From positions 35,056 to 99,055 of IMG/VR virus record IMGVR_UViG_3300021387_000164: 64,000 nt of DNA, one strand, 5' to 3'. The notes under the pieces are model-generated. The model saw only the letters and a program-made list of their open reading frames with translations. It was not told where the DNA came from and searched no databases. The translations under genes and the position numbers were made by a program. How positions within the stretch are numbered: position 1 is the first letter of the stretch; each line of letters opens with the position of its first letter. The stretch comes from a virus (lineage: Duplodnaviria > Caudoviricetes). Below are positions 3,001 to 60,112 of this stretch, in pieces.

Positions 3001-3981
3001 ATCTATTGCGCTGGCTCTGATACCAACCACGTACTATATCTTGGTTATAATGGAAAAGATTACGTTACTTGGCACGAATATGGTAACGATTGGCGTTTCT
3101 ATTATGGTGGAAGTACAGCAGAACGAGATGGTTACCTTTCTGTTATGCTGGGTTCTACAAACTATTTCGAAAGTAACGTTGGTATAGGTACTACAAGTCC
3201 ATCCTACAAGCTACATGTAGTAGGCGACATCTACGCAACGGGAGATATAATGTCCCAAAGTGCATTAACCGTAACCTCTGGAAATGATAATAAAATTATA
3301 TTGGACAACACCGATAGCGAAACATATTGGTCTTTAATTTCTTTTAGAGACCATGGATCAGAGTACGGCTATCTTGGTACTAGGGGTTCAACAGATTTAG
3401 TCTGGAACGGAAATGTAGTAATCCATAGTGGTAACATAACATCTCAATACGTTAGCCATGCAGATAGTGCCGGTTCCGTTGATTGGAGTAACGTCAGTGG
3501 AAGACCTTCGAGTATGCCGGCTAGCGACGTATATAGCTGGGCTAAAGCTTCATCTAAACCGAGTTACAGCTGGAGCGAAATAACAGATAAGCCAACAATA
3601 CCTGATACCGGTAAGATGAACTATTTAACGTCCAATGCAGACATATATCCTCAGTATGGGGTAAATGTATTGGTTAAAATGTCAACTACCAATGGGTATA
3701 TAAATTTACCATCACTTAGCCAAAGTCAAAGTTACACAGGAACAAGTGGTAGTCAAAAATTTGCATATATCATCCGTCTTGCATGTCACACAAGCGGATC
3801 AGCATTTACTATGTATGGATATAGAGGAACCTCTGCAACAAGTCAATATCCGCACGTTAGATCAGGTAATACAGCTGATAGAACAACAGGTGTCGCTTTT
3901 TCTGCTGGAGATACTGACACATACATGTTAACATACGATGGTAGTGTATACGAAGCTTATAGACTTTGTTATACAGAATAA
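73..3981 (+). CDS. Tail fibre/spike protein, 1302 aa (one TAG read through at 2311)
   Basis: Track ORFs 73..2313 and 2368..3981 share a frame with only a TAG between them; fibre-type motifs ATLDDNGKVPASQLP, YLPLSGGTM x2, SAGNADTVxG repeats, NVGIGTTSPSYKLHV. Confidence 0.85.
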
Positions 3982-20292: not shown

Positions 20293-20371
20293 TAATTTTA
20301 ACGTGGAAACCCCAGCTAGTTAGGTCTAGCCTTTGTGTATAGGGGGAGTAGAAAAAATTAAATTTTAAATT

Positions 20372-21418
20372 ATGTTAAACTACGTAAATACTGTACTCGT
20401 TAGCAATCTGGCTACTGGTGCAGTGCTGGCAGCTGAGCCTGCTCAGGCCGCTTCGATGAACGCTGCATCTGCTGATGCTGGCAAGTTTATTATCATGAAC
20501 TGCGATGCTAATGTAGCTTCTGGTGATCTTTATAATGTAACAGCTGCTAATGCTGGCAACATCAACACTATTAAGGTTGGTATCGTAACAAAGAAGAACA
20601 CTGTTCTCCGTAAGCAGAATGGTACTGTTGAGTATCGTCCTATTATCAAGTGGTCTAATGAGATCAAGGCCGCTGATATTAAGAGCTTTAATGCCCTGAA
20701 TTATGCAGCTGACACAGAGGACCAGGTTACTATTGATTTCAGTAATCTTGACGCTCAGGTTGCTACTCTGTTTGCTGAGGGTGGCAAGCGTATCATCGTT
20801 CGCCTGACATTCAAGGATCTGCCTACACGCTTCCGCAACTGGACAGAGTCTTATGAGTATGTTACACAGATTGGTGATACCGCAGCAACTATTGCTCAGA
20901 ATATCGCTAATCAGATTAATTCAGAGTGGAAGCGCGCTCGCGTATCTGCAACTGGTAGCAACTCTCAGGTTGTTATTACAGCTCTGCCTTACGATGACGA
21001 CGAGGCTGTTGAAACACTGAACTGGGCCGCTAAGGTTCGCTTCAATGCAAATGTTTATTATACCGATCCTGCTGCTGACGGATGGGAGTCTAAGAATAAG
21101 CATTTCCCTGCAGGTGTTGCTATCAACAAGGTTCCTGGAAAGCAGTATCCAGCTTCTGCTAAGCTTGTTCGTGATCGTGAGTCTTGGGCTATGGGTTATC
21201 AGGGCATCCTGAACCGTGGCGAGGGCACATGGCCAATCATCAAGCCTGCTATGGAGGCTGACATCACAGCTCAGTACGACGCTCTTACTCTCGAGTTTGA
21301 GAATATGTATCGTGCTGCTGACGACATTCAGCGTAAGACAAAGCAGACTCTTGAGGTATATGGTATCACAGGTCAGCTTTCAGATCTTAAGGATATTCTC
21401 GAGGCTTTTGTAGCCTAA
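20372..21418 (+). CDS. Abundant structural protein (capsid auxiliary/decoration-like)
   Basis: 348 aa, same high-expression codon usage as MCP, no TAG, followed by terminator. Confidence 0.6.
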   Translation: MLNYVNTVLVSNLATGAVLAAEPAQAASMNAASADAGKFIIMNCDANVASGDLYNVTAANAGNINTIKVGIVTKKNTVLRKQNGTVEYRPIIKWSNEIKAADIKSFNALNYAADTEDQVTIDFSNLDAQVATLFAEGGKRIIVRLTFKDLPTRFRNWTESYEYVTQIGDTAATIAQNIANQINSEWKRARVSATGSNSQVVITALPYDDDEAVETLNWAAKVRFNANVYYTDPAADGWESKNKHFPAGVAINKVPGKQYPASAKLVRDRESWAMGYQGILNRGEGTWPIIKPAMEADITAQYDALTLEFENMYRAADDIQRKTKQTLEVYGITGQLSDLKDILEAFVA

Positions 21419-34141: not shown

Positions 34142-37100
34142 ATGCCAAGAAATAAACAAAGAGTAAATACTTCTTGGGCTGGCAGATATGCACGGGAAGC
34201 TTCAAATCGAAGATTTCTTGATGAAATTGACTATTACGACCGTGGTCTGCAGAAGGAAATACAAGCCTCTGCAGATCGTACGGCTCGTTTACAGTACGAT
34301 ATTGATGAAATGCGTGCAGATCGAGCATGGCGAGAAGCAGATCCAGAGGGATATTTTTACGAAAAAAGACAACGAGAGTTAGAAAGTAAACCTAAGACAG
34401 TTGGTAATTATCTTAAGAACTGGTGGGACACATTAGGTCGTAAGATGAATGATTTCCAAGCACAGGATTTCCAAGGTTATATGGACCGTTCTGACGAGTG
34501 GGAACGCTTAGCTAACTCTACAAAGCATTATTTTGAGATACAGGACGAAATTGACAACCTAAATTCTCAATTAGCTCAATGGCGACTTAATACACAGAAT
34601 GTCGGTAAAGCGCCAGCTGAAGAAATGCAGAAGGCATATGGAATGATTGATATGCTTGAAACGTAGAAAAACGCCCTACAACAGGAATTAATTAATTTAA
34701 AGCCTGATGTGGAGGCGTTTAAATCGTATATACCCAACTCTCTCAAGGCTGGCTATTATAATATTGTAGCTGGTAATGGCGAGAATAGTCTCTTATCTAA
34801 TAATAAATTGTTCGGTAGAACATCACAGGCTCATGACGAACTTGGGGATATTACTAGATTTACTACTTCGATGTTCTCTTCAAAAAGAACTCGTGCCGAA
34901 CAAAAAGCAATGCTTGATAGAGCACTTGCTGCAAAGCAGGAGAAATATAAAGAATGGCAAAAAGGTCTAGAGTATAACCTCAACGATAAGGAGAGTTATA
35001 ATAAAGTAGACAGATGGTTCCAACAAAGAGCTGACAAGGCCGGTACTGATATATTTGACAAGAACACATGGCTGTACGGGATGCCAGGACTTATTGCTGG
35101 TTCTACTTCTGGCATATCCAAAATACTCCCTGCTGCACTTACTGGTATTGCTACCGGTATAGCAACAGGTGGTGCTGGTAGTGCTGCATGGTTAGCTGGT
35201 GCTATTGGCGGTGGCGCTACATTTGGGTTGAACTACGGTGCTGGTGTTTCTGAAAACAACGCCGAAGTAGCCATGGCTTATAGTGAGCGTATTAAAGACT
35301 ACCTCCAGAGCCAAAAAGGCACGAAGGGATCTTTATATGACGATGTTATTGCAGAAGGTAGAAGAAAGCTTGGTTTAAGTCGTAGTGCAGCAGATGATGA
35401 CCAGATATTTGACCATTTCCGTAAAGGCGATTATACTGTAAATAATACAGCAGCAAACAAAAAGATGAGAGAACTTGCTGTTGGTATTGAAAGTCAATTC
35501 CAAGATGACATGGCTGCTACGACTTGGTCTGCTGGATTAGAAACTGCTCTTCAAATTATCCCATTTGGCGCAGCACTCAAGTTGCCCGGTAGAGCCCTTA
35601 GATATCAGGTACTTAAATCAGCTGCTGGTAGAAAAGCTCTCAGAAATGGTGCAGTTGAAACATTAGCCAAAGGTTACGAAATAGGTGCTGCTGCTAGTCC
35701 TATAGCAGGTATGCTGTATGCTCCCGTGCATTACATGATGACTCCAGCAAGAAATAAGGTAGGAAAGGCTGTAGCAGGTATCTTGGATGATTTCGCCAAG
35801 ACATCACACATGGTCGACCAAGTACCTTCAAAATTGCTTAGAAAACATTTTGCATCTTCTACTAGAAATAAATACTTTAGAGACATTGCTGGACGATGGG
35901 CATTAGCTTCTGCTGCAGAAGGTATTGAGGAAGGTAAACAACATATATCTTCTGAGAGATATAAGAATGGTTACTACACCGACGCTAAGATAAAAAGTAT
36001 TGGCGAGACCATACTTGACGACTTCATTGCTGGTTCTAAGAGTGCAGGCCTCCTGTTGGGTATGCCATTTGAAGGTGTAATGTCTGAGAAAGATAGAGAG
36101 GTATTAAAAGAAATCAAAGGTGGCTTTATTTTAGGTGGTTTACAGACAGCAATCGTAAACACAGCACAATCAATAGCACCATTTGTATCAGAACAAAAAG
36201 CAACGTCTGCTATTGTTAATAATGTGCTCAAAGATAAAGCAGCTAAGGTAGATAGATTAAACAAAGCCAGAATCTACGCAGAAGCAGCTAAGAGTCAATC
36301 TTCTTATCAGAATATTCTTAATGGGTTTGATCGCTTAAGACAAACAAACAAGGACGAGTATGATGCTTCTGGTGAGTACGGTATTGCACCAGAGTTGATA
36401 GACGATGAGGAAAATGCATTTAAGCGCATTGCTCAAATGTCAATCGACCCTTATACTATCAAACAGGCCAAATCTCAGGGCATAAGCACGACTGGTAGAG
36501 ATTATAATAACTTCGTAGCAGCTAAAGTTCTTGTAACAGATGAGTTAAATGAAGCTAGGGAGGTATCCGATTTAGCTAGAAAGAACCTTTCTGAGGCTGT
36601 ACAAAACGCTACTAAGCCGTTCCTTGACAACACCGTTAAGCAAATGGCGGCAGCAATGCCCGGCGCTAAAGAAAGCTCTGATGAAAATATTGTACCAGAA
36701 TTTAGCAATGCTGACAACTTCAATCAGCTTAACAACGTTGCGCAATACGTAGCTCTTCTTAAGATAAAAGACCAGCTTGAACTTGGTATTATAAATGCTC
36801 AGTCTGGTAGTCATAGAAAGACAGAAAGTATTCTCAATAAGCAGCTTACACAGGTAAACGATAGAATAAATAATCTAAAGCCTGTTATCAATAAGTATGC
36901 CAATGAAGATGAAACCGTAGATATCAATAATATTGAAAGCGTTGAGGTAAAGCTTGCTCTCCATAAAGATATGCACGATAACCTTGTCGAGGCATACCGA
37001 CAGTCTTTTATGGCTGACATGGACTTAGACCTTGCTATGCAGAATTACTCTCGCGTTGTTGGTGACGCTTATATTGGGGATAAAAAGATAGCAGATACTG

Positions 37101-40100
37101 ATAATATAGATTGGTCTAAGGAGTTCGATAATATTACTTTCAAAGACGGACACGCAGCAGATGTATTTAAAGAAATACAAGATACTATTGATGACGACAA
37201 TGATTTATCTTCTGTAATTGACGAAGACTTTGATGACCGTACTGATGATAATGGGGAAGAGGTAATAACACCAGAGCGTGCAGAGGCCGAGGAACAAAAA
37301 GTTCCAGTCAATGACCCAGAGAAGGAGTTTATTGACGATATAGAATCGGAAACACCAGAAGTTGTAAAACCTGTTCAGCCAGAGCCTACACCGGTACCAG
37401 AAACGCCCGTAGAGCCTATTTAGAAGCCTTCTGAGCCTGTTTCACCCGAGGAGTCTATAACTATACCAGAGCCCGTAGAAACGCCTTCAGAACAGCTTAA
37501 ACACGCTCCTAGAGAACAGCGTAAGCCGACTCCTAAACAGAGTTCTACTATGGTTAAGCTCAATACGATAGCAGAGCAATCTAAGAAGGCTGTAAAAGCG
37601 GTTACGCCCGAATATTATACTATTGAAATAGACGGCAAAGATCAAAATATTCCTCGCGTTCATACGATAATGCCTAAATATTGGGCGGCAGATGGAAGCT
37701 TCAACCCTTCTTTATAGATGGGTAATGCGTTTGATAATCTTGCTCGCGTATTCTTTGGTGATAAGAACAATCTCAATGAATACGAAGCAGATAAGGATGC
37801 TCTTGTAACTAAGCTGTACAATTCGTTTGCTTCTGACGGTAAAGACGAAAGATTGTCCAAGATGACATATGAACAGCTTATGCCGTCTAGAAAGGCGTTT
37901 GAAGAGACGATTGACGACTTATATGCGCTTGCAGACCAATATGATAGAAATGGTTGGGAGTTATCTACTGAACCAATTGTATGGCATGCAGAATTCGCCA
38001 ACGGACCAATTGCTGGTGAGACGGATATGGTTGCAGTAGACCAAGATGGAAACATCCATGTCATAGACTTTAAAACAGCTATGGCAGGTGCTGATACTGC
38101 AATAAATCCATTTGGAAGATTCGAAACGCGTTATACATATAAGATACCAGCAGAATTAGAGAATCGTAGATTGGCATTGAACGCTGGTGATTTTACTGTC
38201 GGGCCAAGACAAAAGGGTTTATCTAAAGAAGCCAGATTATTTATACACGATGTACGTAAGGCACTCAATAATAATAAAATAAAAGTATATTGGGATGCTG
38301 CATCTGAGCAAGCAGCTCTTTCTTATATTGATTCTAATTATTCTAAATCTGGAAATTCATCATACCGAGTAACGCATATGTATAACGATACTGTGAAAGG
38401 TTCTAAAGAGGATGAATATTCTGACCAGCTTACTGCATATAAAGAAATGATACAGCGTCAACTTGGTGATGTAGTTGGTATGGAGGTTGTAGGGTTTAGA
38501 GTTAAATATAGTCACGATGGTACAAATGTCACTTCTATAGAAAGTGTTCGTAATTCGGTTGACGGAAAGCCATTTAGAGTAATGGTTAACGTTAGTGACG
38601 AAATGAATAACATATTGAATGTTGAGGCAAGTGCACCAATGTTTGAAAACCCAGAGCCAGACCCTGTTGTAGAAGCCACTATGACAAACGAGGCCAACGA
38701 ACATGTGCGTACAGAGGAAATCAAAAAGGCTGACAATACTAAATTTGAACAGCCTGAACCAACTCCTACTACACCTGAAGAAATAGCTGCTATAAATGAC
38801 ATGGAGGTTAAGGGCCGCTCTAATCTGAATGATAAAGTTCTAGATAGAGACCATCCTACTCTCGTCAACGGTATCGTGTTCGATAAGAACTTTATTGCAG
38901 ATGCTATACAAGATGGTTCTGTAGAGGTGTTCACAGAAACAGTCAAAGATAGACGCGGCGAAGTACCTTCTGTATATGTAAACGTCACATATAAAGGCAA
39001 AACGTACAAGAGAATATTTGTATATGCAGACCAAACGTTGATTACGAAAGTACAAGCTCTTGAGAAGATTAAGCAGCCCGGACAAAAGATTGTCGCTACT
39101 AATATAAGTAGAACAAAGGGTGAGATTAAGTCTGGTGAAGTTAAGAATGTACTCGAATCTGGTCTCGTTGACCAACCGGTTGAGGAACTTGAGTTTACTC
39201 CACAGAACATGTCATTTGGATTTGTTAAGAATGGCAATATTGTTGCGTTCCCTAACAATGATACCAAGCAGCAGGACATTATAGGAAAGACAAGCGCTAT
39301 AGACGGAACAATGGTTTATATGAAGCGAATTCCTAGAACAGAGAGTGAAGGTGGTGATAAGTTTATCCCAGTTGCTGTTAGCAGACGCTCTCTTGCTGGA
39401 GACGCAGACTTTATCATTGACTGTCTTAAGAGAATAGACTCGATTGGTGTTCCATATACAACAGTTGTCAATGGTAACGATGTTTCTATAGGCGCAACAA
39501 GAAAAGACCTTCTTGACTTACTTATACCATATGTTGATGATATATCAAATTTCACAAAGACATGGTCTATAGTAAGAGACCCGAAGATACCTAGTATTTT
39601 CTATATAATAAATCCGCAAAAGCAAGCTGTAGCAAACGTTGATATTAGAAATCAGCAGTCCATTGATAACTTTAAGGAAGCTTTGAAAAACGTTCAGCTT
39701 GTTGAAAGACACGATGTGCTTGCTTGTCGAATAGGTTCTAACAATGCGACACCTGCGTTTGCTAAGATTAAGAAGTTCTTTGCCAACAATAAATCTGGAA
39801 TTAAGTCTTTAAATATATCAGAGAATCTTAAGTTTGAATTTGATGACTTTAAAGGCGCAGGATTAAGCGGTTTAGGCTGGTATGTTAAGCACGGTGTGTT
39901 CTCTAGTGATTATGCCGGAATAGGCGGTCCTAAGATGAGTGTAAACAATGTTGGTTTTGCAGAAAAGAAAAACAAACCTGTAGAGCCTACTAAGGTTACA
40001 ATAGCAGAAGATAATCTTCCTAAACAGGATGCTAGCATAATGGACTTTATGATTGGTAACTGGGGCGGATTAAGAAAACAAAAGGCTGTTGCTGATAATA

Positions 40101-43100
40101 AGAAGCCACTTCTTACTAGAGATACAATTAAGAAGAATCTTAGACCAATTCTTGGAGACCTTGTTGATGACCAAAGTGTTCTTACTATCATTGACACATT
40201 CGCCAATGACCCACGAGTAACGAATGCGATGGTCGTTGGTAAAGCTACTGCTGATGGTATTACTATTTATAATGAGGCGTTTGAAGGTGTTGAATTCCAC
40301 GAGGCGTTCCATAGAATATTCGAGTTGTTTGTACCAAAAGCTGTTAGAGAGTCAGTATATAATAAGGCTGCTAAGAACATAGGCGTAGATTTGTCTACTA
40401 GTACCAAGGACAATAATTATATTGGTCATAGACAAGTTGCTGAGTGGCTTGCAGACAAGTATATGGATAACCACTATAAGCAATATACTGGTATAGCATG
40501 GCTCGACAAGGTTCTTAATATGATTGCTGATTTTGTTAATGCGTTAGCACATATAAATAATTGGCAGTTATATAGAACATTCCTCGAAATAAACAGTGGT
40601 AAATATCGCAATAAGAAGACAGCATCTAAAGAAAACGTTGATAGATTTAATGAGCTTTTTGGCAACTTGAACTACGAGATTCATGGTACACAGTTTGAGC
40701 ATATTGTAAACGACCCAATGTATGAAGAGCTTAAGAATTCTGCATTCTATTGCTTACTGCTCGGACAAAATGTAGATGTATCTGGTTCGACTGTACAAAA
40801 TACACAAATATCTAGAGAGGCTATTAAACGTGGTGCAGAACGTCTTAAAGCACTTAACTATGATATATTTGGAACAGAAGTAGACCCACAGGATAAAAAT
40901 GCAGCTCAGTTGGCAATGACTGAACTTGTTGTTAAGTTCGAAGCTGTTGCGGACGACTTAGCAGCAATGATGGCAAACATATCTACGGATTATAGAAAGA
41001 TTATGCAGAACGATACTCGTGAAGATGTTGATGGTGGAGATTCTGCATCGTCTTACGATGAAAACTTTATGAAATGGTCGTACGAATTTGATAGATTCGA
41101 TAAGACCACCTCACGTGTAAAGTTCTTCTTTGCTACAATTCCAGATATGCGATACGGAGAAGATGGTAAACCAGAGTTTGCTACGAATAGTCTTGGTATG
41201 CCACAGCTTATTCCTATGAACTATGTATTCAATGAAGTACTTAGTAATCTTTGGGACGTTGATACTGTCGAGGAGGTTATTTCCAGACTTTCTTCTCTTG
41301 CTATTACAGACCCAATGTACTCGGCGATATTGAATAATTTAAATAGCATTGTAGCTGACGCTAAGAATACGAATAGTCCTACAAACGCTGACAGCGAAGC
41401 ATTGTTAGCACAGCTTATGACTACTATACGTTCTAACAGACATACGTTTATGTTACTTAGAACAGTACACAATGCGCAAGGTTCATACGATATTGTATTA
41501 CAGCGTTCAGATGCTGATTATAATGCTCGCGTATTCCCAATTCAGTGGTCGCAAGTGCTCGCTAAGGGTGGTTCTGAAGTATTAAAGTTGAATAAATACG
41601 GAAGCGTTGTAATCAATCCAAACAACGAACAGGCTGCATACATATTCAGTACCATAGCTGACCTATTCAACCAAATTAAAGATGCAACATCTACCGTAAA
41701 TAATGGTAAGGGCTTGATAGGTATTCCTTCTGTATTTGAATACGAAGACTCAATGGGTAACCGCAACACCGGTACTGCTTGGATTGAAGGTAGATATACA
41801 GAAGATATTACAGACCCAGCTGGTTGTAAGATTGTTAAAAACCTGATTGTTGAGAGCTTAAATAGTATAGGTATTAATATACACATTGAAGAGCTCGAAT
41901 ACATGCTTAACCACAAGTATGGCTCTTCTGATTGGGAAGCAATTAAACAAATGGTTCAGTCTACTGATGATACAGACTCTATTTCATCGTTCTTATTCTT
42001 CTTGAATAACATCGTAAAAGACGGCAAATTAAACTTGACTACTGATGGAATGTTTACGAATCATATGGGAAGACAAGTTCCATTTGAGAATGTTTACTCT
42101 GATATGGCATTTGTAAATGAGCTTGGTAATTGGAAGTATGAGTTTAGACACGCACACGACCAATTATCTGTACTTGCTACTGGCGGTAATAGATTCTACG
42201 AAATGTCCGACAACGACTATATGTCCGATGTATTAAGAGACATGAATAAGCGTGGTAAGTTCTTCAGAGACCTTAAAGGTGACCCGTATAATTATTATAC
42301 AGAGACAAATAACTTCGACGAAACTAACGAATATGGTTCTATTACAATCAAACAGCTGTCATTGAACCCAGAAGCAAAACTTGCGTTGAAACATTTTATC
42401 GGGTTTAAAACTGATAAACGAGGTGATGAAGGACAAGACTACTTCGAGATTAGTAGACGTGAGGACTATCTGTCTAAGGTTGGTATTCTCGAACATGACG
42501 GAATGATTTCTCTTACTCTTTCTGATAAGAAAAAGTATGTATATATAACAGGCGTTAAGTTACCAGGTGTTGATTATTCTGCTATAAATAAAAGTAAGAC
42601 ACCTGTGATAGATGTTGCTAATCTTGCGTCACAACAGATATTTGTTCCTAGTGAAGGCATTAGTAATACTTACGACATTCAACAGCTTGAGGATGTTGTA
42701 GAGCAAATGCGTTCATATGCAATTTCAGAATATCAATCCATTCTTGCACAGGCAAACAAGCTGAATGACGGTCATAGAAAAATAGCCAACTTCGATGACA
42801 ATGGCCAGGGATTAAGATTCTCTTCGCTCCTTGGTGTATGGGAACCTACTTACGATAAAGAAGGAAATGTGTCTGGAGAACAGTTCATTTCGTTCAATGA
42901 CGGTAGACATGCATGGCAAGACGATTTGCGCATGGCTGAAATACATTTCTTCGACAAACCAGTAGAGGAACAACAAGCGTTACTTAGACGTATACTTACC
43001 AAACAGGCTGTTAATGAACTTGATACTGCCGAAAAACTTGGTCTTATTAAGAAGGTTGGTGATAATAAAAATCCATTCCTAAACTATAAGAACAGCGGTT

Positions 43101-46100
43101 TAAACAATAAGGTAATCGAGTCAATCAAACTGTCATATCTTGAGAAGTATAAAATGTATCCAAAGTTCACAGAACAGATGGCTGAATCAATGGCTATTAC
43201 TGTTTATATGAACGATATTTCTAACAAGGCTATAATGTCTGGACAGGAAATGGAACGCTTATTCTCAGGTAATCCTTCATTCTATAAGTGGAAGTATGAT
43301 AAGCTTGGGCACTTAATAGACAGAACTGTCGACGAGCTTAAACGTCTTGGCGGTCTTGGTTCTACTGGTAATAATAACTTTACTCAGTTAGAGGGTATTC
43401 CTGCTAAATATTTAGATAAAGACGGGAACTTTACCGGCGAATATGTGTGTGCAGAGGTTGACAACGAAGTGGTTGGTTCTCCGCAGTACAAGGAAATGAG
43501 AGACAAGATGTATGACGGACAACTCAGAAGTCTTGTTATTGATTTTGAATTGTCTGCTCGCGTAAAGGAGGCCGAAGAGCTTTATTCTAGAACAAGAGAA
43601 AATATTAATAAGAATAGGGATCTTGACAGACGTGAGAAAGACCTTGCTATCGCACAGGCGCTGTCTGAACATAATCTTCATTTAATCGAAATTAACGATG
43701 AGGTTTGTGATAAAGTAGATAATGCTGAAATAAGTGACCTTGAAAAAGATTATCCAAACCTTGCAGAACAGGCTAAGACACAGGCTGACGAGGTTTCAGA
43801 CGCATTAAAGCTTACGATAAAAGAGGACGGCTCCAAAGAAGGTATTGATGTAGCAGATGGTGGAGCTTATGTAAGTGATACTATGTGTGAAATGCTTCTT
43901 AGAATGGAAGGTGCTTATAGTAAAGAGATACAAGAGGCTTTCAAGATTTTAAGAGGAGAAACAAAATCAGATTATCTTGGTCAAATAGATGCTTATCAGA
44001 AGGTTCTTACTAGTGTAATAGGCAACCAGAAATATACAGCATTCGGACGTAGGTTACAAAATGGAACGTCTGTTCCATACTATCACAAGATGGCTCTGTT
44101 CCCAATCTTTGACTGTATTGCAACTGGTAAGATGCGTAACATATACGATAAGATGAAAGAGCAAGGTGTTGATATGCTTCTTGTTAACTCTGCGGTTAAG
44201 GTTGGTTCTGAGGGTTCTAAACCGATCGATTGGAATAAATATAGACAGACCGATGACCCAACTGACGAAAACAACTTTAACGGCGACATCGCTTACCAAA
44301 ATTGGAAGCCGATGTTTAAAGATGGGTTCAACTTTAACACATATAAATGTGATTTTGACTATCTTAGAAAGCAGTTAAATACCGACCCTAAAGAGGAACA
44401 TATGCTCCGAATGGGTACTCAGATGCAGAAAGTTGTATATTCCAACCTTGTTCCAGGTCGTGTATATAAAACTCAAGACGGAGAAGAGTTGCGTGGTAGA
44501 GACCTTCTTGCTAGAATCATGGAATCGTCCAACAAGCTTTCTGATATTGGTGTGGATGAAATCAACAAACGGTTCTTTGTAACAAACGAGAACGGTGAGA
44601 TTATTGACGCTAGTGGAAATGTTATCCTCGATAGAAATTCTGACGAGCGCATGCTCGATATAGAGAAATTCTCTAAAGAGGTTAGTAGATTAATGAGCGA
44701 GAGAGGTGCTGACAAGAATGTTATGCATGCATTGGAGCTTGTAACATCTAACAAGGGTTCTAAACAGTTATCTATTCCACTTGGCGCCATATCTAATGCC
44801 GGATGGCTTGAGAGTGTACTTATTTCTATGCTTAATAAAGATATTGTAGATGTAAATACACCGGGAGCATTCTTCATTCAACGTTCTGTATGGGCTATGC
44901 AAGGCATGAAGATGGCAGATGGTAAGAAGAAGATATTAGGAGACCTTAGTTCTAGAAGCCTTTATGATGGCGAGCGCTTGAAGATGGTAAATGAGAACAA
45001 CTCTATGGACGTTGTATTATCATTAGATTTCTTCCAGCACATCTTACCACAAGTACCATCTGGTGAATACGAAACAGACGAAGACGGCAACTACGTATAC
45101 GAAAGGGGTGCAGGTGGTGCATATAAAGTAGATGAACATATGCAGCCTATTCCTAAGAAGAAGATGCGTGATATGACGTTTGATGAGGCTAGAAAGTGGC
45201 TTATTCGAAAAGGTATTATCGGAAAGAACGCCAAGCCTAGCATTGTTTCATATCGTATTCCTACTCAGGCAGAATCTTCTATTCATGCTCTACGTTGTGT
45301 CGACGTGATACCTGTTGTACGAGACACTATCATTTATCCAGAAGAGTATACTAAGGAGACTGGTAGCGATTTTGACATCGATAAAGACGGATTGTCTACT
45401 CTTAATTATCACAACGGTTCGAGTGATTTTAAAGAGGGTACTAAGGAATATTATCAGAATAGACTTATTAAAGATTATATAACACTTCTTACAGATAGTA
45501 GAACACAACATATTCTTCATAGGTCTATCGATAATGATACTAAGCTCCTTAAAGACGTGCTTAAGAAGATCGAAAAGAATACCGACAAGCGTGAAATGCC
45601 TTATGGCTTCTATTCATTGTCAGCACAGACAGAGCGTAAGGATGACTATATTACTGGTAAGATTGGTATCGGACCATTCGCGTTGAATAACAACAACCAC
45701 ATTCTTACTATGCTGTACGGCGTCAAGTTTAAAGACTTTGATGGTAGTATCATGCATGAACTTGGCCTTACAGATTTGTCTGGTCACACTGATAAAGAAG
45801 GTAATTCGATTATGTCTTGGTTGTCCGCTCTTATCAATGCCCACGTGGATATTGCCAAAGACCCGTACATTAGTAGATTGAATGTTGGTCCATTTACTTA
45901 TAATTTGGTTAACACTCTTATCCGTACTGGGCTTGGTGCAAAGACGTTCTACTTTACTACGCAGCCTATAATGAAAGAACTCGCAGAGGCATATAATCGT
46001 GCTGGTAGTTCTTATATGGCTGACCCTTACAAGTCTAAGCATCAACTACAAAAAGACGCAATCGAGACAGTCGGTAAAGATAGATTTAGTGATGTTACTA

Positions 46101-48253
46101 TTGGTGAATGGTCATTTGATGACTTAGTTGAAGGTGTAAATGACCCGAAAGATACGATTATTAAGCCTGTAATAAACAATTATATCCGTCAGATATTTAA
46201 TGAGGGTACACTCGAAAGCAATGCCAATAGAGATTACGATGCATCAATTGGCGCCGATGTTCTTCCTGTAAGGACAACTGTTGACGGAGAGGGTAAGATT
46301 GAGAAAGTTTCTCTTAATGCAGACCAAGTTCAGCTGCTTATGTATCTCGCATATTTACAGTTTGAGCCATACGCATTGTCTGTATCTAATCTCGTTAAAT
46401 ATTCTAAGATTGATACCAAGAAACATGGTAAGAGTTATATTGAACAGCAAGTATATTTGAGAGGATTCAATAGACTGTTTGATAGTAGTACAGGTGGTTT
46501 ATTCGAACAAGAAGGCCTCCAAAGATTGTCTAAACAGTCATATATCGAACTTAAAACTACTAATGCTATTTCAATGACAAAGAATATCCTTAAAGGACAA
46601 TTCTTACAGGCTACAAATGCATTTGATAATGCTATACAGCAAATACTCAATATGATTGGAAAGCCCGACTCTTTAAATGTTGATTTGTGGAATAGTATTT
46701 CTGGTGCAATAAACGCTTCTATTAAGTCAGAGTTTATAAATATCTATGCTGGTAGCTTGAGACCAGGTAACGATACATATATACATGACTTGGTTAGTGA
46801 AAGCGAACAGACATTTGAATATACTCAATCTGCAAATAGTAATGTTATTAAACTTGCTGGTACACCAAAATATAGTCTTACGTCGTATATAAACAAAAAA
46901 GCTTATGCTTCATTTGTTCATAATGGTAAGAAATGGAATTTCACATATACTATTATTGGTTGTGATGACAAGAATAATACATTGATTGTGGATACTCCTC
47001 GTAAAGTGCATAACAACGGAACAATACGTATAACCGGTGGTGAAAACACAATTTACGATAGGTTCAATAGGCTTGCTATAGAATTACGAGACGATGTTCA
47101 ATACGCAGATGTTTTGGATGCTGCTGGAGAGCCTAGAAATATGTTATTGAGAAGCCTTGTAACTGGTAAGACGTTTGATTATAAGCCATTAGCGTTTATA
47201 CCAAACTACCAAGTAAGAGAAGGTTCTGATACGTATGAAACACTTAAGTTTGTTAAGTTGTTTAATGCGCTCGACCAGAATGGAGTTGAATCTAATTTCA
47301 TTATAGACGCTTGGGATGAGTTACTTCACGATGACAAACATCCTAAACTCAAAGAGTTTGCGGAAGACCTTGTCGTATATGCGTTTGTAACGTCTGGTGA
47401 CCAAGGTGGCTTTACAAAATTCTTCAAGCAAGTACCTTTGTCTTGGAGAAAAGAGTCTGGTTACGGTGACTTTATTAATAGAAAGTTAGTAGAATTCCAA
47501 TATGGTGATATTCCAACGGAACAGCTACAAGATGTAATTCTAAATAACTGGCATAACAGTACACTTGTTCCTAAGTACGAGCTGCTTGATAAAAATAAGC
47601 AACCGAACTTTATGGCTTACCGTGGAGAAGCTGCTGCCAATGGATTCATTGACGTATACACATATCCTACTATCATGGCTGCGTTGAAGGATAACAATGG
47701 CAAGCTTGAGGTTTCTATTGACCCAGACAACGCACCTGTGTTTATAAAGATACCTAGACGTATCGATAGAGATGCAAGAGATAGTCAGCGTAGGGTTACA
47801 GTATATAAGCGTGTATCTTACGGTATGCGTAGAAGTTCAGATGGTTCTTGGGTTCACTATCCAATATACGTTAAAGTAGAACCAAAGGGTAACTTACTTA
47901 AGGGTAATTTCCTGATGACTGAATATGGTCGTGAAGACTCTCTGCATAAAGAGTATGGTCCAAGTGAGGATGGTATGAAGAAGATGTTTGCTCTCGGTGA
48001 CTTTATTGAGCGCAGTGTTGTACAAGAGTATAATAAAAAGTGGGGTTCTGTTTTCTCTGGTATGATAGAAGATATGAACTATCAGTACTTGTTCGAAAAT
48101 CGATTTGGTCGTGACGAAGAAAGATTTACAAAGGCGTTAAATAGTAAAAACGACAATGAAAACGCGGAAGAGCAGAACGGTCTTTCTCAAGATCAAATTG
48201 ATCAACTTAAGAAGGAAGCTGAAGAAATTAAGAAACAATGTAAAGGTGAATAA
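34142..48253 (+). CDS. Giant virion RNA polymerase polyprotein, 4703 aa (TAG at 34664, 37421, 37715)
   Basis: Single frame across three track ORFs; RNAP catalytic GSDFDIDK (~45368) with YRIPTQ; zincin HEAFH (~40298); PD-(D/E)xK GETD...IDFKT (~38015-38074). Confidence 0.85.
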
Positions 48254-56204: not shown

Positions 56205-56346
56205 CTTTACATGTTATTGCAAAGACAAGCGTTCCATACTTCTCTTCGAAGTCCTTTATATCTTCATACAGCTTGTAATACAAGCCAAGTCCACCGACGA
56301 TTACGCCTAATGTAAATGTAGATATAAAATCAATTATTTCACACAT
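56182..56346 (-). CDS. Small membrane protein (54 aa), not in track
   Basis: MCEIIDFISTFTLGVIVGGLGLYYKLY...; fills gap between primase and endonuclease with overlaps. Confidence 0.6.
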   Translation of the reverse strand: MCEIIDFISTFTLGVIVGGLGLYYKLYEDIKDFEEKYGTLVFAITCKDEKQRKG

Positions 56347-57322
56347 ATCTTTCTACTGTTTTAGTTAACCAATCCTTTACAGCAAAGAACCCGTTACCTT
56401 TAACAGCATCGGATATGTCCTTTGCCTTAAACTTTTTGTGTACAAATATAGCATCTAGCTTATATTGTCTACTATATGAACGAGTTGTTTTTACACCTGT
56501 TGGGTCTCTATCATATAGTATAATGATATGCTTCCATTTACTACGCAACGACTGCAATATATCATCTGGTATAAATGTAGTCTCACTTGAAGCGGCTATA
56601 GCATTAAATCCCATCTCATATAAACACATCACATCCTTTAAGGACTTTGTTATGATGAGGAGATTACCTCCCTCCTGAGGCAACTCGGCCAGCCCCTGAA
56701 CGTGCCGATTTGTCAAATTGGTACGCCATTTAGTATACTTGGAGGCTAAAGGTCTATAAATTTTAAATCGTTCATAAACCTTATATGCATACATAGGACT
56801 GTCTTCTTTGTAGGTTCCTCTGACGACTCCATTACAAAGAAAGTATTTAATACTAAATACATTGAATTTCTTCAACGTATCAATAGATATATGAAACTGC
56901 TTCCAGTATTGTTTATCTGCAGTGGTAAATGGTTGTCGAACAATCCCTATATCAGTTACACCAGAACTTACTCGTTTAGAGTAATTATTTGTTCTAATCT
57001 CCTTATTAGGATTCATTCGTCTGACAATCGCGAGAAGCTCTCTTTCAAGTTCTTCTCTTGTTTGAACACCTTTGTATAGTTTTATGAATTTGAGAGCATT
57101 ACCTGCTTCTCCTGTTCCGTGGTCTTTAAACAATAAATCTCCAGTCTTACTAGGAAATATAGCAAAACTAGGGATTTTGTCATCAGGCCTCAATGGACTA
57201 TTCATCAGTGTTTTAGGTTTAAAAGAACCTAAATAATAGCTATAAATGTCATAATCGTTCACTTTGTCCAATAAGTCCTTAAGACTCATTGTCATAGTAA
57301 TAGCTGTTTTTGTACTATACAT
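56339..57322 (-). CDS. DNA primase (crAss-type TOPRIM)
   Basis: SPLRPDDKIPSF, FKDHG, IITKSLKDVM, YDRD, KDISD motifs. Confidence 0.85.
   Translation of the reverse strand: MYSTKTAITMTMSLKDLLDKVNDYDIYSYYLGSFKPKTLMNSPLRPDDKIPSFAIFPSKTGDLLFKDHGTGEAGNALKFIKLYKGVQTREELERELLAIVRRMNPNKEIRTNNYSKRVSSGVTDIGIVRQPFTTADKQYWKQFHISIDTLKKFNVFSIKYFLCNGVVRGTYKEDSPMYAYKVYERFKIYRPLASKYTKWRTNLTNRHVQGLAELPQEGGNLLIITKSLKDVMCLYEMGFNAIAASSETTFIPDDILQSLRSKWKHIIILYDRDPTGVKTTRSYSRQYKLDAIFVHKKFKAKDISDAVKGNGFFAVKDWLTKTVERYV
57303..57322 (-). repeat. 20-nt direct repeat copy 1 (ATGTATAGTACAAAAACAGC) at primase start
   Basis: Identical to 60093-60112. Confidence 0.95.
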
Positions 57323-57343
57323 GGCTTATAAGCTCTTTTGTAT

Positions 57344-57395
57344 TGTGGAGATTGCTGGAATCGAACCAGCATTATGAGTATACTACACGATCTCT
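57344..57395 (-). ncRNA. tRNA-like element A (acceptor stem + T-arm only)
   Basis: GAGAT...GCTGG-TTCGATT-CCAGC-AATCTCC-ACA; D and anticodon arms replaced by ~19 nt. Confidence 0.65.
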
Positions 57396-57662
57396 TCTTT
57401 CGATCATTACCTTTCCTGATTTGCGCACAACTGGAGATACACGCTTTCATCAGACACCCTCGAACTAGTATTCCTCCAGTTCCCTCATCCTTGTATACTT
57501 GACTTCCCAACTGTCAAAATCCCCAGGTTGACAGAGATTTGGCGGTATTTTGGCACTCTGTCATTGTAGGTTTCTCCTTTTTGTATTTGCGCCCCTCTAT
57601 AAAATCATAAACGCAAGAGGCCTGAGAATGTATCTGCATGCACTGTCCATTCTCGTTTTATT
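57396..57662 (-). ncRNA. Putative structured ncRNA between tRNA-like elements
   Basis: No convincing ORF; stems GAGAATG/CATTCTC, TTGCG/CGCAA, CTGTCAA/TTGACAG, AACTGGAG/CTCCAGTT, CTGAT/ATCAG. Confidence 0.45.
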
Positions 57663-57710
57663 TGTGGTCTAGTTAAGATTCGGACTCAACTTAAACTACC
57701 ATAGTAGACC
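57663..57710 (-). ncRNA. tRNA-like element B (minihelix, 6+6 bp)
   Basis: GGTCTA...GTTGAG-TCCGAAT-CTTAAC-TAGACC-ACA. Confidence 0.6.
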
Positions 57711-57716
57711 TAAAAA

Positions 57717-58163
57717 TTAAAGGTATTTTTTCATTGTTACAGTTCCATTATCATTGTATTTTACGACCTTATAATTCATTCGTTCGTACCATTTTTGCAT
57801 CCACGAATCTTTGTCGGTTACCAATTCTATAGAACACATTCCCAATTGAACAGCGAGCTGCTCTCCTGCCAAATGCAACATCTTTCCAATACCTTTATTT
57901 CTTTTACTTTCGTGTACAGAAATACTTCCAAAAAAACACTCTTTTGGGTGTTTCTTTTCTATCCCCATATTATGTACACCACAACCGTCGCTTGTTACCG
58001 TTGTATAAGATGTTCCCCAATACCATTGGTTTTTATGAACGATCAACTTTGGTTTACGACAGAATTCAGTTCCGGTTAACCTCGCAAAAGTTGAAGCAAT
58101 ACATTGCCCCAATTCTTGCACTGTTGTCCATAGGTTTTTCAACCCATTCAAATTTAATTTCAT
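57717..58163 (-). CDS. GNAT-family acetyltransferase
   Basis: SVHESKRNKGIGKML acetyl-CoA motif A, WYERMNY; start uncertain. Confidence 0.75.
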   Translation of the reverse strand: MKLNLNGLKNLWTTVQELGQCIASTFARLTGTEFCRKPKLIVHKNQWYWGTSYTTVTSDGCGVHNMGIEKKHPKECFFGSISVHESKRNKGIGKMLHLAGEQLAVQLGMCSIELVTDKDSWMQKWYERMNYKVVKYNDNGTVTMKKYL

Positions 58164-58203
58164 CTGACTTCATAATATTCTCTATGTATTTTTTTGTAAA
58201 CTA

Positions 58204-58611
58204 CTACGAAATTAATCGTTTTAGTTCTCTCAACCATGCTCCTAATTGAGCGTGTTGTTGTCCACATACATCACATTTATGTTCTTCAGAAACATTATCG
58301 CAATGTTTTATAGCTTCGTCTAATGATATTATTTTACTATTTTGGTTACTAACTACATCTTTTTTCTGTATTTTTTTTTCATATACATCCATAGCTAAAT
58401 AACATCCAATAAAATATATAATAGCTGCTACAGAACATGCAAATATGGTATCTAACTTTACAATAAGTTTAGTCAATACTACTGATATTACAGCTGTAAA
58501 CGAACCCATGAGTGACGCATGTAATTTTGATGATTTAATTATCATCAAACTTCTTAAGACTCTCATAAATACTCTTATGAAAGTTGCAATAATGTAAAAT
58601 ATTAATTCCAT
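58204..58611 (-). CDS. Membrane protein fused to small Cys/His domain; ends TAG TAG (extends to TGA at 58066 if read through)
   Basis: Hydrophobic helices then SLDEAIKHC...CDVCGQQHAQLGAWLREL. Confidence 0.6.
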   Translation of the reverse strand: MELIFYIIATFIRVFMRVLRSLMIIKSSKLHASLMGSFTAVISVVLTKLIVKLDTIFACSVAAIIYFIGCYLAMDVYEKKIQKKDVVSNQNSKIISLDEAIKHCDNVSEEHKCDVCGQQHAQLGAWLRELKRLIS

Positions 58612-58637
58612 ATTGATTATGATTAAAATTATTTATT

Positions 58638-58772
58638 TGTACTACTAGCGAGATTCGAACTCACATTAACTGCACCATGTATGGCCGTTCTATCTTTATG
58701 GCGAACACCCTCCTCGCCTTCCATCTGATATTATCTCGTGGCAGTGGTATACCAATTCCCACTCATAGTAGC
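58638..58772 (-). ncRNA. tRNA-like element C with 67-nt insertion replacing the anticodon loop
   Basis: GCTACTA/TAGTAGT acceptor, GGAATTGGTATAC D-loop, ACTGC/GCAGT stem, GTGAG-TTCGAAT-CTCGC T-arm, ACA end. Confidence 0.7.
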
Positions 58773-58780
58773 TTTTAGAA

Positions 58781-58924
58781 TCATATCTCTTCTTTAGATG
58801 ATTCTTTTTTAATTTTGTTTAACACTTGGTTAACCTTTTTAGAAAGATTAACCTTTTCTCTACCTCCTTTGTTCCAGTACCAGTCTTTCCAGTATCCTGG
58901 CTTGTGATAGTCTTTCTTTGCCAT
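58781..58924 (-). CDS. Small basic protein (47 aa) between tRNA-like elements
   Basis: MAKKDYHKPGYWKDWYWNKGGREKV...EEI-TGA; fills the spacer almost exactly. Confidence 0.55.
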   Translation of the reverse strand: MAKKDYHKPGYWKDWYWNKGGREKVNLSKKVNQVLNKIKKESSKEEI

Positions 58925-58926
58925 AT

Positions 58927-58999
58927 TGTGGATGTGGGAGGAATCAAACCCGCCGTTACATGGCTCACAGCCATCATTCTGTCACTGAATTACACACCC
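58927..58999 (-). tRNA. Degenerate tRNA-His(GUG)-like element D
   Basis: Cloverleaf GGGTGTG/CACATCC, anticodon loop CTGTGAG; but T-loop TTTGATT, no D-loop GG, no G-1/C73, ACA end. Confidence 0.6.
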
Positions 59000-59077
59000 T
59001 TAATAAGCCCTGTGTACGCCTCAAGTGTCTTATCGTACTTAACTCCCTCGCAATGGGAGCTCCTAAGCCAGGACTTT

Positions 59078-59156
59078 TGTAATCAGGTGGGGAATCGGAC
59101 CCCACAATCCATCAACTATCTTGTAGTTAATCGTCATAACCTCTAGACTACTGATT
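59078..59156 (-). ncRNA. tRNA-like element E (6+6 bp, elongated anticodon arm)
   Basis: AATCAG/CTGATT, D-arm GTC-TAGAGGTTAT-GAC, ATTAACTA-CAAGA-TAGTTGAT, GTGGGG-TCCGATT-CCCCAC, ACA end. Confidence 0.65.
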
Positions 59157-59364
59157 TCCGTTAGGGGCTGACTGGATTAACCAGTCAGTCCTCCACCACT
59201 GACCTTTTATAAGTTTGTTTCTCACGCAAAATCCATTATCGAAGCAATTAGTAATTTCAACTAACACGGGTGCCATTACGTTCTGTTTCCCAGCTCTGCG
59301 AGCCATGTCTTTTTCCATCATACTTCTAGGATGCTTCTTATTTGGTTGTCAGCACCACTGACCA

Positions 59365-59502
59365 TTAAAACCAGGAAAATGTTTTCCAGAACATACGTTC
59401 TTGCTCTTTTTTCCATTTCCTAAATTCTTTCCAATGATCACGATTTAGATAGACAGATTGTCCACCATTAATCGTAATTTCAAAAGGGCAGGTCGTCAGC
59501 AC
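59365..59502 (-). CDS. Possible small Trp/Lys-rich ORF (GTG start, or +1 frameshift extension of SSB-like gene)
   Basis: ...EITINGGQSVYLNRDHWKEFRKWKKEQERMFWKTFSWF-TAA in +1 frame across the SSB stop. Confidence 0.35.
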   Translation of the reverse strand: MLTTCPFEITINGGQSVYLNRDHWKEFRKWKKEQERMFWKTFSWF

Positions 59503-60112
59503 CTGTTGATACAGCTTTGGTCACTGTATCGATAGTCTCAGTTACCGGAGTACTCTCTACTTCTGGAGTAGGGGCAAGCGGATCGGCAGGCTTCTCAACG
59601 TCAGCCTGTACTGGACGCTCTGTAAGATCACTCTTCCAAAGCTTAATCTGAGACTCTGCAACGGTCATAGGCTCAACGAAAATACCGTTCTTAGATACCT
59701 GAGTATAACCATTCTTGTCGTAAGTTACCTTAAGACGAAGCTTGGTATCCTGCTTGATTACCTCAAGCTGTGCTTTAACCCAGTTAATCATCTCTACGAA
59801 AGATGAACCCTCGAAGTCGGTATGGCTACCGTTTATTGCATCAATAACCTGCAGAATACGACCGAACTGCTGATTGTCTCGACGTTGTAAATCCTCGTCG
59901 GTCTTAATCCACATGTTCTTCTCGTTCTTCCACTCAGTCATAGTTGCTGTCTGGTTGTTCTCATTCTCGAAGACAATCTCCAAGAAGTCACGATCATTTT
60001 GTGTACGGTTAACATTTACCTCTTTCAAGGTAATGTTTTCGTTAATACCCACTGGCATATAGGAGCTGATAAACTCCTGGTTACTCGTTGTTGCTGTTTT
60101 TGTACTATACAT
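59480..60112 (-). CDS. Single-stranded DNA-binding protein-like
   Basis: Acidic flexible tail ending DDLPF; adjacent to Sak4-like ATPase. Confidence 0.7.
   Translation of the reverse strand: MYSTKTATTSNQEFISSYMPVGINENITLKEVNVNRTQNDRDFLEIVFENENNQTATMTEWKNEKNMWIKTDEDLQRRDNQQFGRILQVIDAINGSHTDFEGSSFVEMINWVKAQLEVIKQDTKLRLKVTYDKNGYTQVSKNGIFVEPMTVAESQIKLWKSDLTERPVQADVEKPADPLAPTPEVESTPVTETIDTVTKAVSTGADDLPF
60093..60112 (-). repeat. 20-nt direct repeat copy 2 at SSB-like start
   Basis: Identical to 57303-57322. Confidence 0.95.

Follow-up and report, generated by a model that had tools for sequence, protein, structure and literature searches.

tRNA-derived structured RNA elements between the SSB-like and primase genes of a TAG-recoded crAss-like phage

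The DNA considered here (the window) comprises 64,000 nucleotides of IMG/VR record IMGVR_UViG_3300021387_000164 (positions 35,056 to 99,055) and makes up the right-hand part of a genome of 99,055 bp that carries direct terminal repeats. The phage is crAss-like, and its nearest named relatives are cr130_1, cr124_1, and cr7_1 (Crassvirales, Suoliviridae, Oafivirinae). On the minus strand of its replication module, the gap between a gene resembling that of the single-stranded DNA-binding protein (SSB) and the gene for DNA primase holds a cluster of five elements, designated A to E (Table 1). The five are structured RNAs derived from tRNA that occupy the "tRNA slot" region; the phage itself is TAG-recoded and falls within Suoliviridae, near Oafivirinae. 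The array that they form is real, conserved, and apparently unannotated. Judged from sequence comparison, the best reading, to which we assign a probability of roughly 0.55, is that the elements serve as processing signals of the kind known as t-elements and would in addition yield stable tRNA-like RNAs.

We used a strict composite motif consisting of a T-stem with at least 4 of 5 pairs (including G53-C61), a loop of the form T[TC][CT]GA[AT]T, a further 7 nt, and ACA. The motif had 6 matches on both strands of the 99-kb genome; 5 of these were the elements of the cluster, within 1.8 kb, and the remaining match was the genuine tRNA-Ile. In 200 shuffled genomes the mean expectation was 0.005 matches. 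These minus-strand elements are genuine, and chance does not account for the five of them. All five have a 12-bp acceptor/T stack, a T-loop, and the G53-C61 pair, with acceptor and T-stem lengths of 7 and 5 bp in A, C, and D and of 6 and 6 bp in B and E. An initial annotation of this DNA, made from the sequence alone, had described five elements at these sites and on this strand, each with its particular T-loop, an acceptor stacked on the T-stem, and an ACA tail, and all of these features were confirmed. The distances that it gave to neighboring genes were also correct, in that B begins 6 nt after the stop codon of the GNAT gene and A, C, and D end 21, 26, and 2 nt, respectively, before a gene start. 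Within the window, elements thus sit 2 to 26 nt upstream of start codons.

Table 1. Positions in the window of the tRNA-like elements, the associated modules, and the surrounding genes
Feature	Position	Strand	Description
DNA primase (Toprim)	56339-57322	-	Pfam Toprim; annotated primase in cr130_1 and cr124_1; downstream of the cluster
Element A (redefined)	57344-57524	-	181-nt cloverleaf; ends 21 nt ahead of the primase ATG
Element B	57663-57710	-	48-nt minihelix; 6-bp acceptor and 6-bp T-stem
GNAT acetyltransferase	57717-58163	-	Pfam Acetyltransf_1; PHROG acetyltransferase families; between C and B
135-aa protein	58204-58611	-	phrog_33451; accessory gene between C and B
Element C	58638-58772	-	135-nt tRNA-shaped RNA; 7-bp acceptor, D arm, and T-arm
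47-aa open reading frame (MAKKDYHKPGYWKDWYW...)	58781-58924	-	From the list of open reading frames; begins 2 nt past D and stops 8 nt short of C
Element D	58927-58999	-	73-nt near-normal cloverleaf; G3:U70, A73; one C:C mismatch in the T-stem
Element E	59078-59157	-	80-nt full cloverleaf; 6-bp acceptor and 6-bp T-stem; D arm with GG
Type I module	59158-59204	-	Abuts the 5' end of E; GGTCAGTGGTGGAGG, a variable hairpin, then CCCCTAACGG
Type II module	59343-59363	-	GGTCAGTGGTGCTGACAACCA; 5-bp hairpin GTCAG/CTGAC
210-aa (SSB-like) gene	59480-60112	-	C-terminus ...GADDLPF*, an SSB-type acidic tail read from sequence; upstream of the cluster

The initial annotation had anticipated that tRNA finders would return pseudogenes or no calls for the elements, and ARAGORN at default settings called no tRNA in the window and none of the five. 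An Rfam search of the whole window at the gathering threshold likewise gave nothing, and a search of positions 56800 to 60000 at an E-value of ≤10 gave tRNA matches for D and E only. Under the Rfam tRNA model (RF00005; cut-off, 29), E scored 23.1 bits and A, B, and C were unreported, yet D was placed above the cut-off at 34.8 bits. A canonical anticodon arm (5-bp stem, 7-nt loop, U33, and a purine at position 37) was not found in A, B, C, or E and was ambiguous in D. The elements are almost certainly unable to read codons, with D ambiguous in this respect as well. What they keep is the half of a tRNA recognized by RNase P, RNase Z, and the CCA-adding enzyme, namely the 12-bp acceptor/T stack, the T-loop, a D-loop GG or UGG, and A73, and the array thus shows the acceptor/T-arm fold without decoding capacity that is expected of t-elements.

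The remainder of each element differed in several respects from what had been proposed. The decoding half had been considered deleted in both A and B. This was true of B, whose 14-nt linker holds a UGG (D-loop-like) motif and no anticodon arm, and B is the only true minihelix among the five elements. It was not true of A, which is a cloverleaf carrying a 113-nt insert. The acceptor of A (GGGGAUU/AAUCUCC, with the partner strand GGGGATT at 57524) forms 7 of 7 bp and has G3:U70 and A73; the internal parts are a D arm with GG, a 7-bp stem at the anticodon position (AGTATAC/GTATACT) around a branched domain of ~113 nt, and the T-arm. The unconstrained minimum-energy fold of 57344-57524 was this same cloverleaf (z = -2.1), and its four stems are perfect across 181 nt. 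Element C had been termed hugely expanded, and the extra RNA does exist; however, it is an insert of ~56 nt that forms two additional hairpins in the variable region, whereas the D arm is normal and the stem at the anticodon position is small (3 bp, with a loop of 5 to 19 nt among homologues). Elements E and D, previously regarded as elongated and degenerate, are better described as a full cloverleaf with a conserved 7-bp anticodon stem and as a near-normal cloverleaf, respectively. The 7-nt anticodon loop of E (ACAAGAU) is without U33, and E has A73 and the ACA tail. The anticodon arm of D (AUGGC-UGUGA-GCCAU) has either a 5-nt loop or a 4-bp stem with the loop CUGUGAG (GUG), and ARAGORN called D at a relaxed threshold only, as His-GUG. 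Position 55 of the T-loop is C (TCCGA) in the window's B (57683) and E (59098), and nearly all homologues have TTCGA; a single homologue of E (L092) shares the C. Several further possibilities were rejected. Intron-bearing tRNAs were proposed for A, B, and C by relaxed ARAGORN only, and with inconsistent anticodons. No group I intron was detected in the elements with Rfam intron models, and the inserts of A (113 nt) and C (~56 nt) are too short for such introns and have no flanking anticodon-loop halves. The loop motif ACRAGR, common to A, C, and E, was set aside as a shared signal because its enrichment was weak (16 versus 8.5 ± 2.6) and the sequences were non-independent.

Comparison with homologues indicated that three of the elements are maintained by selection. 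For E, 14 distinct homologues with a mean identity of 93% were found; 98% of the cells in the alignment of 14 sequences were paired, and 8 compensatory pairs were distributed across the acceptor, D, anticodon, and T helices. None of 500 shuffles reached the observed level, slid controls collapsed, and the flanks were unalignable in the first nine homologues aligned. For B (4 sequences; homologues in L005/L006, L015, and L030), three compensatory pairs were observed in the T-stem. For C (3 sequences; homologues in L016 and L041), there were 5 such pairs in the acceptor, the anticodon-position stem, the inner hairpin, and the T-stem, and the flanks were again unalignable. All three elements were 86 to 96% identical to their homologues. 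Because similar copies occur at differing positions in differing genomes, and because the flanks of E and C cannot be aligned, E, B, and C behave as selected modules. The initial annotation had held that a lack of covariation in the acceptor and T stems would mark the elements as decaying tRNA pseudogenes; E, B, and C do covary and therefore are not such pseudogenes. The contrast that it expected between acceptor/T stems and anticodon arms did not appear, since the D and anticodon stems of E covary too. Therefore, a bare cutting signal is insufficient to account for E.

To place the cluster in its lineage, 80 Suoliviridae loci were fetched through their primase genes. T-arm motifs on the coding strand were enriched ~30-fold within 1 kb upstream of primase, and the related loci held ~190 tRNA-shaped elements versus 28 tRNAs called by ARAGORN. 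These elements ranged from 41 to ~200 nt and contained many unrelated inner domains. In 62 of the 80 loci an element ended 14 to 27 nt before the primase ATG, and the occupants of this slot were interchangeable, being a genuine tRNA (Leu, Trp, Lys, and others), a tRNA-like element, or a type I copy of the GGTCAGTGGTG module described below (in at least L013). When 81 loci were considered, an open reading frame starting with ATG began within 30 nt downstream of 47% of 190 elements, compared to 9% of random positions. Together with the spacings in the window, these results place the elements at mRNA boundaries, as is the case for t-elements. The survey also bore on the ACA tail, which had been taken as a trait of mimics. 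ACA ends were present in 101 of 232 T-arm matches in a first census, and the discriminator was A in 141 of 190 elements in a stricter one. Moreover, the genuine Leu-UAA, Gln-UUG, Trp-CCA, and Asn tRNAs of relatives, as well as the phage's own tRNA-Ile, end in A73-C-A or A73-C-T. Because genuine tRNAs of the lineage end alike, the tail does not mark a mimic; it is a feature of CCA-less tRNA genes throughout the lineage.

If the elements are processing signals, a transcript of the replication module would be read through the cluster, the 5' end of each element would be cut by host RNase P, and a second cut after A73 would be made by RNase Z or result from trimming. The products would be separate mRNAs with very short leaders, together with stable tRNA-like RNAs excised from the transcript and open to completion by the host CCA-adding enzyme. 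RNase P, RNase Z, the CCA-adding enzyme, and alanyl-tRNA synthetase (AlaRS) all take acceptor/T-arm minihelices as substrates. Since A and D both carry the alanine determinants G3:U70 and A73, they might also be charged by AlaRS. The anticodon-side domains of E and C are conserved, and the released E and C RNAs therefore probably have a further role beyond processing. No intrinsic terminator-like site was found on the coding strand between the units of the cluster in the window. The earlier proposal that the elements are not translation tRNAs but punctuation was upheld insofar as the finders reject them, the acceptor/T half is kept, and they lie at gene boundaries; the covariation of the D and anticodon stems of E spoke against punctuation as the whole explanation. 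Other observations weigh against the favored reading as well. Cleavage, co-transcription, and RNA stability are all predicted from sequence features, and the RNase Z and CCA steps would depend on the biology of the host. The conserved D and anticodon arms of E and the inner hairpins of C are unexplained by a pure cutting signal, and the statistic on proximity to open reading frames owes much to the primase slot. For A and D, blastn gave no homologue in the 80 loci or among the complete genomes of nine additional relatives, and two pattern scans of IMG/VR gave only a chance coding match (L084); D also has its T-stem mismatch, and the C at T-loop position 55 sets the window's B and E apart from most homologues.

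The elements are accompanied by a short module whose exact 11-nt core, GGTCAGTGGTG, has two copies in the genome, at 59158-59204 and 59343-59363. In related loci, types I and II together were represented by 57 distinct copies. Those of type I are usually located 0 to 10 nt 5' of the 5' end of a tRNA or tRNA-like element or of an ATG; in 29 aligned copies the first 13 nt were invariant and the hairpin was variable, and the general form of the ending was CCC(C)TAAC or CTGG. RNAalifold gave no supported structure for these 29 copies because the variable hairpin aligns poorly, and no Rfam family matched the module. The loop of type II, UGGU, could pair with an ACCA just downstream, and UGGU in the module is also complementary to the ACCA end of A73 tRNAs. 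By analogy, one might speculate that it acts as a T-box-like sensor of ACCA ends. A role as a genome-wide promoter was rejected, given that the only two exact copies are both in the cluster, and a ribozyme like the theta or hepatitis delta virus (HDV) ribozymes was rejected because the order of the parts misfits and because no supplementary sequence matches the module. The 3' end of the SSB-like gene (GGTGCTGACGACCTGCCCTTTTGA, 59480-59503, encoding GADDLPF*) is much like the type II module (GGTGCTGACAACC, 59343-59363), and this close resemblance hints that the array may have grown by repeated insertion or duplication at the end of that gene.

In this genome, as in each of the ten complete relatives that were tested, late genes require TAG to be a sense codon. 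Among the plus-strand late genes of the window (12470-48253), for example, positions 34142 to 48253 form one frame of 4703 aa when TAG is read as sense. The tRNAs of the complete 99-kb genome are tRNA-Gln(UUG), Met, Glu, and Ile only, and no CUA suppressor was found in it with ARAGORN (default, relaxed, and intron modes), a stem-loop scan, or a profile of the suppressors of relatives. We surveyed this genome (G000) and nine of these relatives (G001 to G009) for suppressors. The CUA suppressor was canonical in G005, G008, and G009, had its anticodon loop interrupted by an intron of ~1 kb with an HNH-type open reading frame in G006, was present with an aberrant T-loop and missed by ARAGORN in G002, and was not found in G000, G001, G003, G004, and G007. 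In the G006 suppressor (L158:2468-2501 and 3497-3540), the loop CUCU|AAC is split by an insert of ~995 nt that encodes the HNH-type endonuclease; the insert resembles a group I intron in having U and G at its splice-site positions, and the Rfam intron model gives it no score. The G002 suppressor (L129:17380-17422, minus strand) has a normal anticodon arm (CGAGG-CUCUAAC-CCUCG) and a 6-nt non-consensus T-loop, and a tRNA-like minihelix directly precedes it. Another tRNA-like minihelix of the present genome (C1:12162-12214, or L081:1663-1715, minus strand; 18.3 bits under the Rfam tRNA model) lies just upstream of the genuine tRNA-Met. About 170 nt upstream of this minihelix is a stem (GAGGG...CCCUCC-AGGUCC) that is like the 3' half of the suppressor anticodon arm of relatives and is kept in G007.

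These findings raised the possibility that one or more of the elements are working non-canonical tRNAs missed by the finders, for example D as a GUG tRNA charged with alanine, or a decoder of TAG. The genome requires TAG as sense and has no detected CUA tRNA, suppressors of relatives can evade detection (by the intron in G006 and the odd T-loop in G002), and TAG-recoded Suoliviridae without a suppressor have been noted in the literature (bioRxiv 10.64898/2026.08.21.746148). The score of D under the Rfam tRNA model exceeds the cut-off, and its anticodon loop can take the form CUGUGAG, which has U33, GUG, and A37; E contains an invariant CUA...UAG. However, the CUA of E occupies positions 32 to 34 in tRNA numbering, follows a base that varies (A, U, or C), and pairs with the invariant UAG, and the loop of E is without U33. 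In addition, the presence of E does not complement the absence of a suppressor in the 10 complete genomes, since G005 has both and G006 and G007 are without E, which makes E unlikely as a TAG decoder; E as a TAG suppressor was rejected on these two grounds. None of A, B, and C has an anticodon loop of 7 nt, and D is a singleton that is without the His identity elements G-1 and C73 and whose loop would be shut to 5 nt by a 32-38 pair. Non-canonical decoding by the elements was therefore judged to be unlikely. A broader variant, in which the cluster would be part of the machinery of TAG reassignment, with E or the alanine-identity elements A and D decoding or regulating TAG and UGGU of the GGUCAGUGGUGGA module pairing with ACCA ends in the manner of a T-box antiterminator so as to sense processing or charging, appears highly improbable.

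The remaining explanations dispense with either present function, message processing, or RNA altogether. Decay from a once-larger tRNA array would fit the genuine tRNAs found in the same slots of relatives, the T-stem mismatch of D, the missing homologues of A and D, and the C at T-loop position 55 in B and E. It does not fit the compensatory changes that preserve every helix of E and some helices of B and C, the conservation of E and C amid unalignable flanks, the four perfect stems of A over 181 nt, or the T-arm-bearing element held at a fixed spacing before the primase ATG in 62 of 80 loci. This reading is excluded for E, B, and C and could hold for D and, formally, for A; as an account of the array it is quite improbable. 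It is rather unlikely that the elements serve instead as decoys or sponges for host tRNA-binding factors (defense nucleases, AlaRS, modification enzymes, or EF-Tu). The conserved cloverleaf and invariant loop region of E do suggest recognition of a released RNA, A and D have the alanine identity G3:U70 and A73, and one gene within the cluster encodes a GNAT acetyltransferase, a family in which some toxins acetylate aminoacyl-tRNA. Against decoys, the anticodon loops resemble no known nuclease target, the anticodon-side parts are wholly different among the five elements, no defense or counter-defense gene was identified nearby, and the tight placement ahead of start codons would be left unexplained. 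Lastly, the elements and the GGTCAGTGGTG modules might function mainly as DNA, either as junctions for cassette swapping or as origin repeats in the gap between the SSB-like and primase genes. The occurrence of the same element at different sites across genomes, the interleaved GNAT gene and small open reading frames, and the resemblance of the type II motif GGTGCTGAC(A/G)ACC to the 3' end of the SSB-like gene are all in keeping with this idea. However, every copy is in the orientation of transcription, compensatory changes keep the helices in a tRNA-specific geometry, and the vicinity showed no recombinase gene. The turn in GC skew coincides with the switch of gene strand near 53-54 kb, away from the cluster, and lends no support to a replication origin there. 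We therefore assign the DNA-level explanation little probability.

Several observations concern the genes around the elements. Searches of the 210-aa gene against Pfam and PHROG gave no match. The DNA of the 47-aa open reading frame is kept in at least 4 relatives (L057, L039, L034, and L015), and in L057 a type I module precedes it in place of a tRNA-like element. A 10-nt palindrome, GCTTATAAGC, lies a few bases before the primase ATG, in the spacer that follows the last tRNA-like element (57323-57343, minus strand); the versions in relatives are AGCTTAAGCT or ACTTATAAGT.

If host tRNA enzymes do cut at these elements, crAss-like phages would organize the expression of their replication genes by a mitochondrion-style tRNA punctuation, and highly abundant viruses of the human gut would make diverse unannotated stable RNAs with the shape of tRNA. 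In this lineage, tRNA finders overlook ~85% of the tRNA-shaped elements in addition to some suppressor tRNAs, and the missed suppressors bear on how late genes are read in TAG-recoded Suoliviridae in which no suppressor is detectable.

Among known systems, transfer-messenger RNA (tmRNA) shares with A an acceptor of the form GGGG.../...CUCC-A, the G3:U70 pair, and the T-arm, as does tRNA-Ala. Unlike tmRNA, A has a normal D stem and a stem at the anticodon position, and no tag reading frame or set of pseudoknots was identified in it. ARAGORN in tmRNA mode found none, and the sole Rfam tmRNA match in the region (8.6 bits versus a cut-off of 47) fell on the T-arm of C (58648-58664) and not on A. 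The MALAT1 mascRNA and the tRNA-microRNA transcripts of murid herpesvirus 68 are non-decoding tRNA-shaped modules that enable another RNA to be released or terminated by RNase P and RNase Z; these are eukaryotic nuclear systems with no sequence or evolutionary relation to the phage array.

A closer setting is found in gut phages whose tRNAs are accompanied on the 3' side by HDV-like theta ribozymes (Kienbeck et al. 2024, PMC10879173). As here, the phages are gut Caudoviricetes on Bacteroidota and often TAG-recoded, the tRNA genes are without an encoded CCA, and an RNA device beside the tRNA serves in end formation. In contrast, the conserved module of the present array is 5' and not 3' of the element, the arrangement of its parts is not the order P1-P2-P3-L3-P3'-P1'-P1.1-L4-J4/2-P2' of theta ribozymes (PMC10879173), and this genome contains neither a CCA-adding enzyme gene nor a DRB0094 RNA ligase gene. 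With a regular expression for the theta core, the single match in the genome fell outside the window and none fell within the cluster; the HDV-family models of Rfam gave none at an E-value of ≤10, and no cleavage site within 5 nt of a tRNA 3' end, as in theta-associated tRNAs, was found in the cluster. At C1 ~20350-20417 of this genome (minus strand), ~14.6 kb before the window, there is a theta-like core, matching GCC-U-CC-ACGC-GGC, with fitting P1/P1' (GGTGTC/GACACT) and P1.1 (GG), and no tRNA was called adjacent to it.

The closest likeness is to the t-elements of plant mitochondria, which are tRNA-like, non-decoding folds at the 5' and 3' boundaries of mRNAs (Forner et al. 2007, PMC1920247), and to the tRNA punctuation of animal mitochondria. 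In both the mitochondrial systems and the phage array, non-decoding tRNA folds lie at mRNA boundaries, where they are thought to direct cuts by RNase P and RNase Z that would divide a long transcript into units with short leaders. The phage array differs in that its setting is a phage genome in a bacterial host, in that cleavage is inferred, and in that its members range from a 48-nt minihelix up to 181-nt cloverleaves with large conserved inserts and share their slots with genuine tRNAs. By this analogy, the most fitting view of the array is as a phage counterpart of t-element punctuation that would also yield RNA products.

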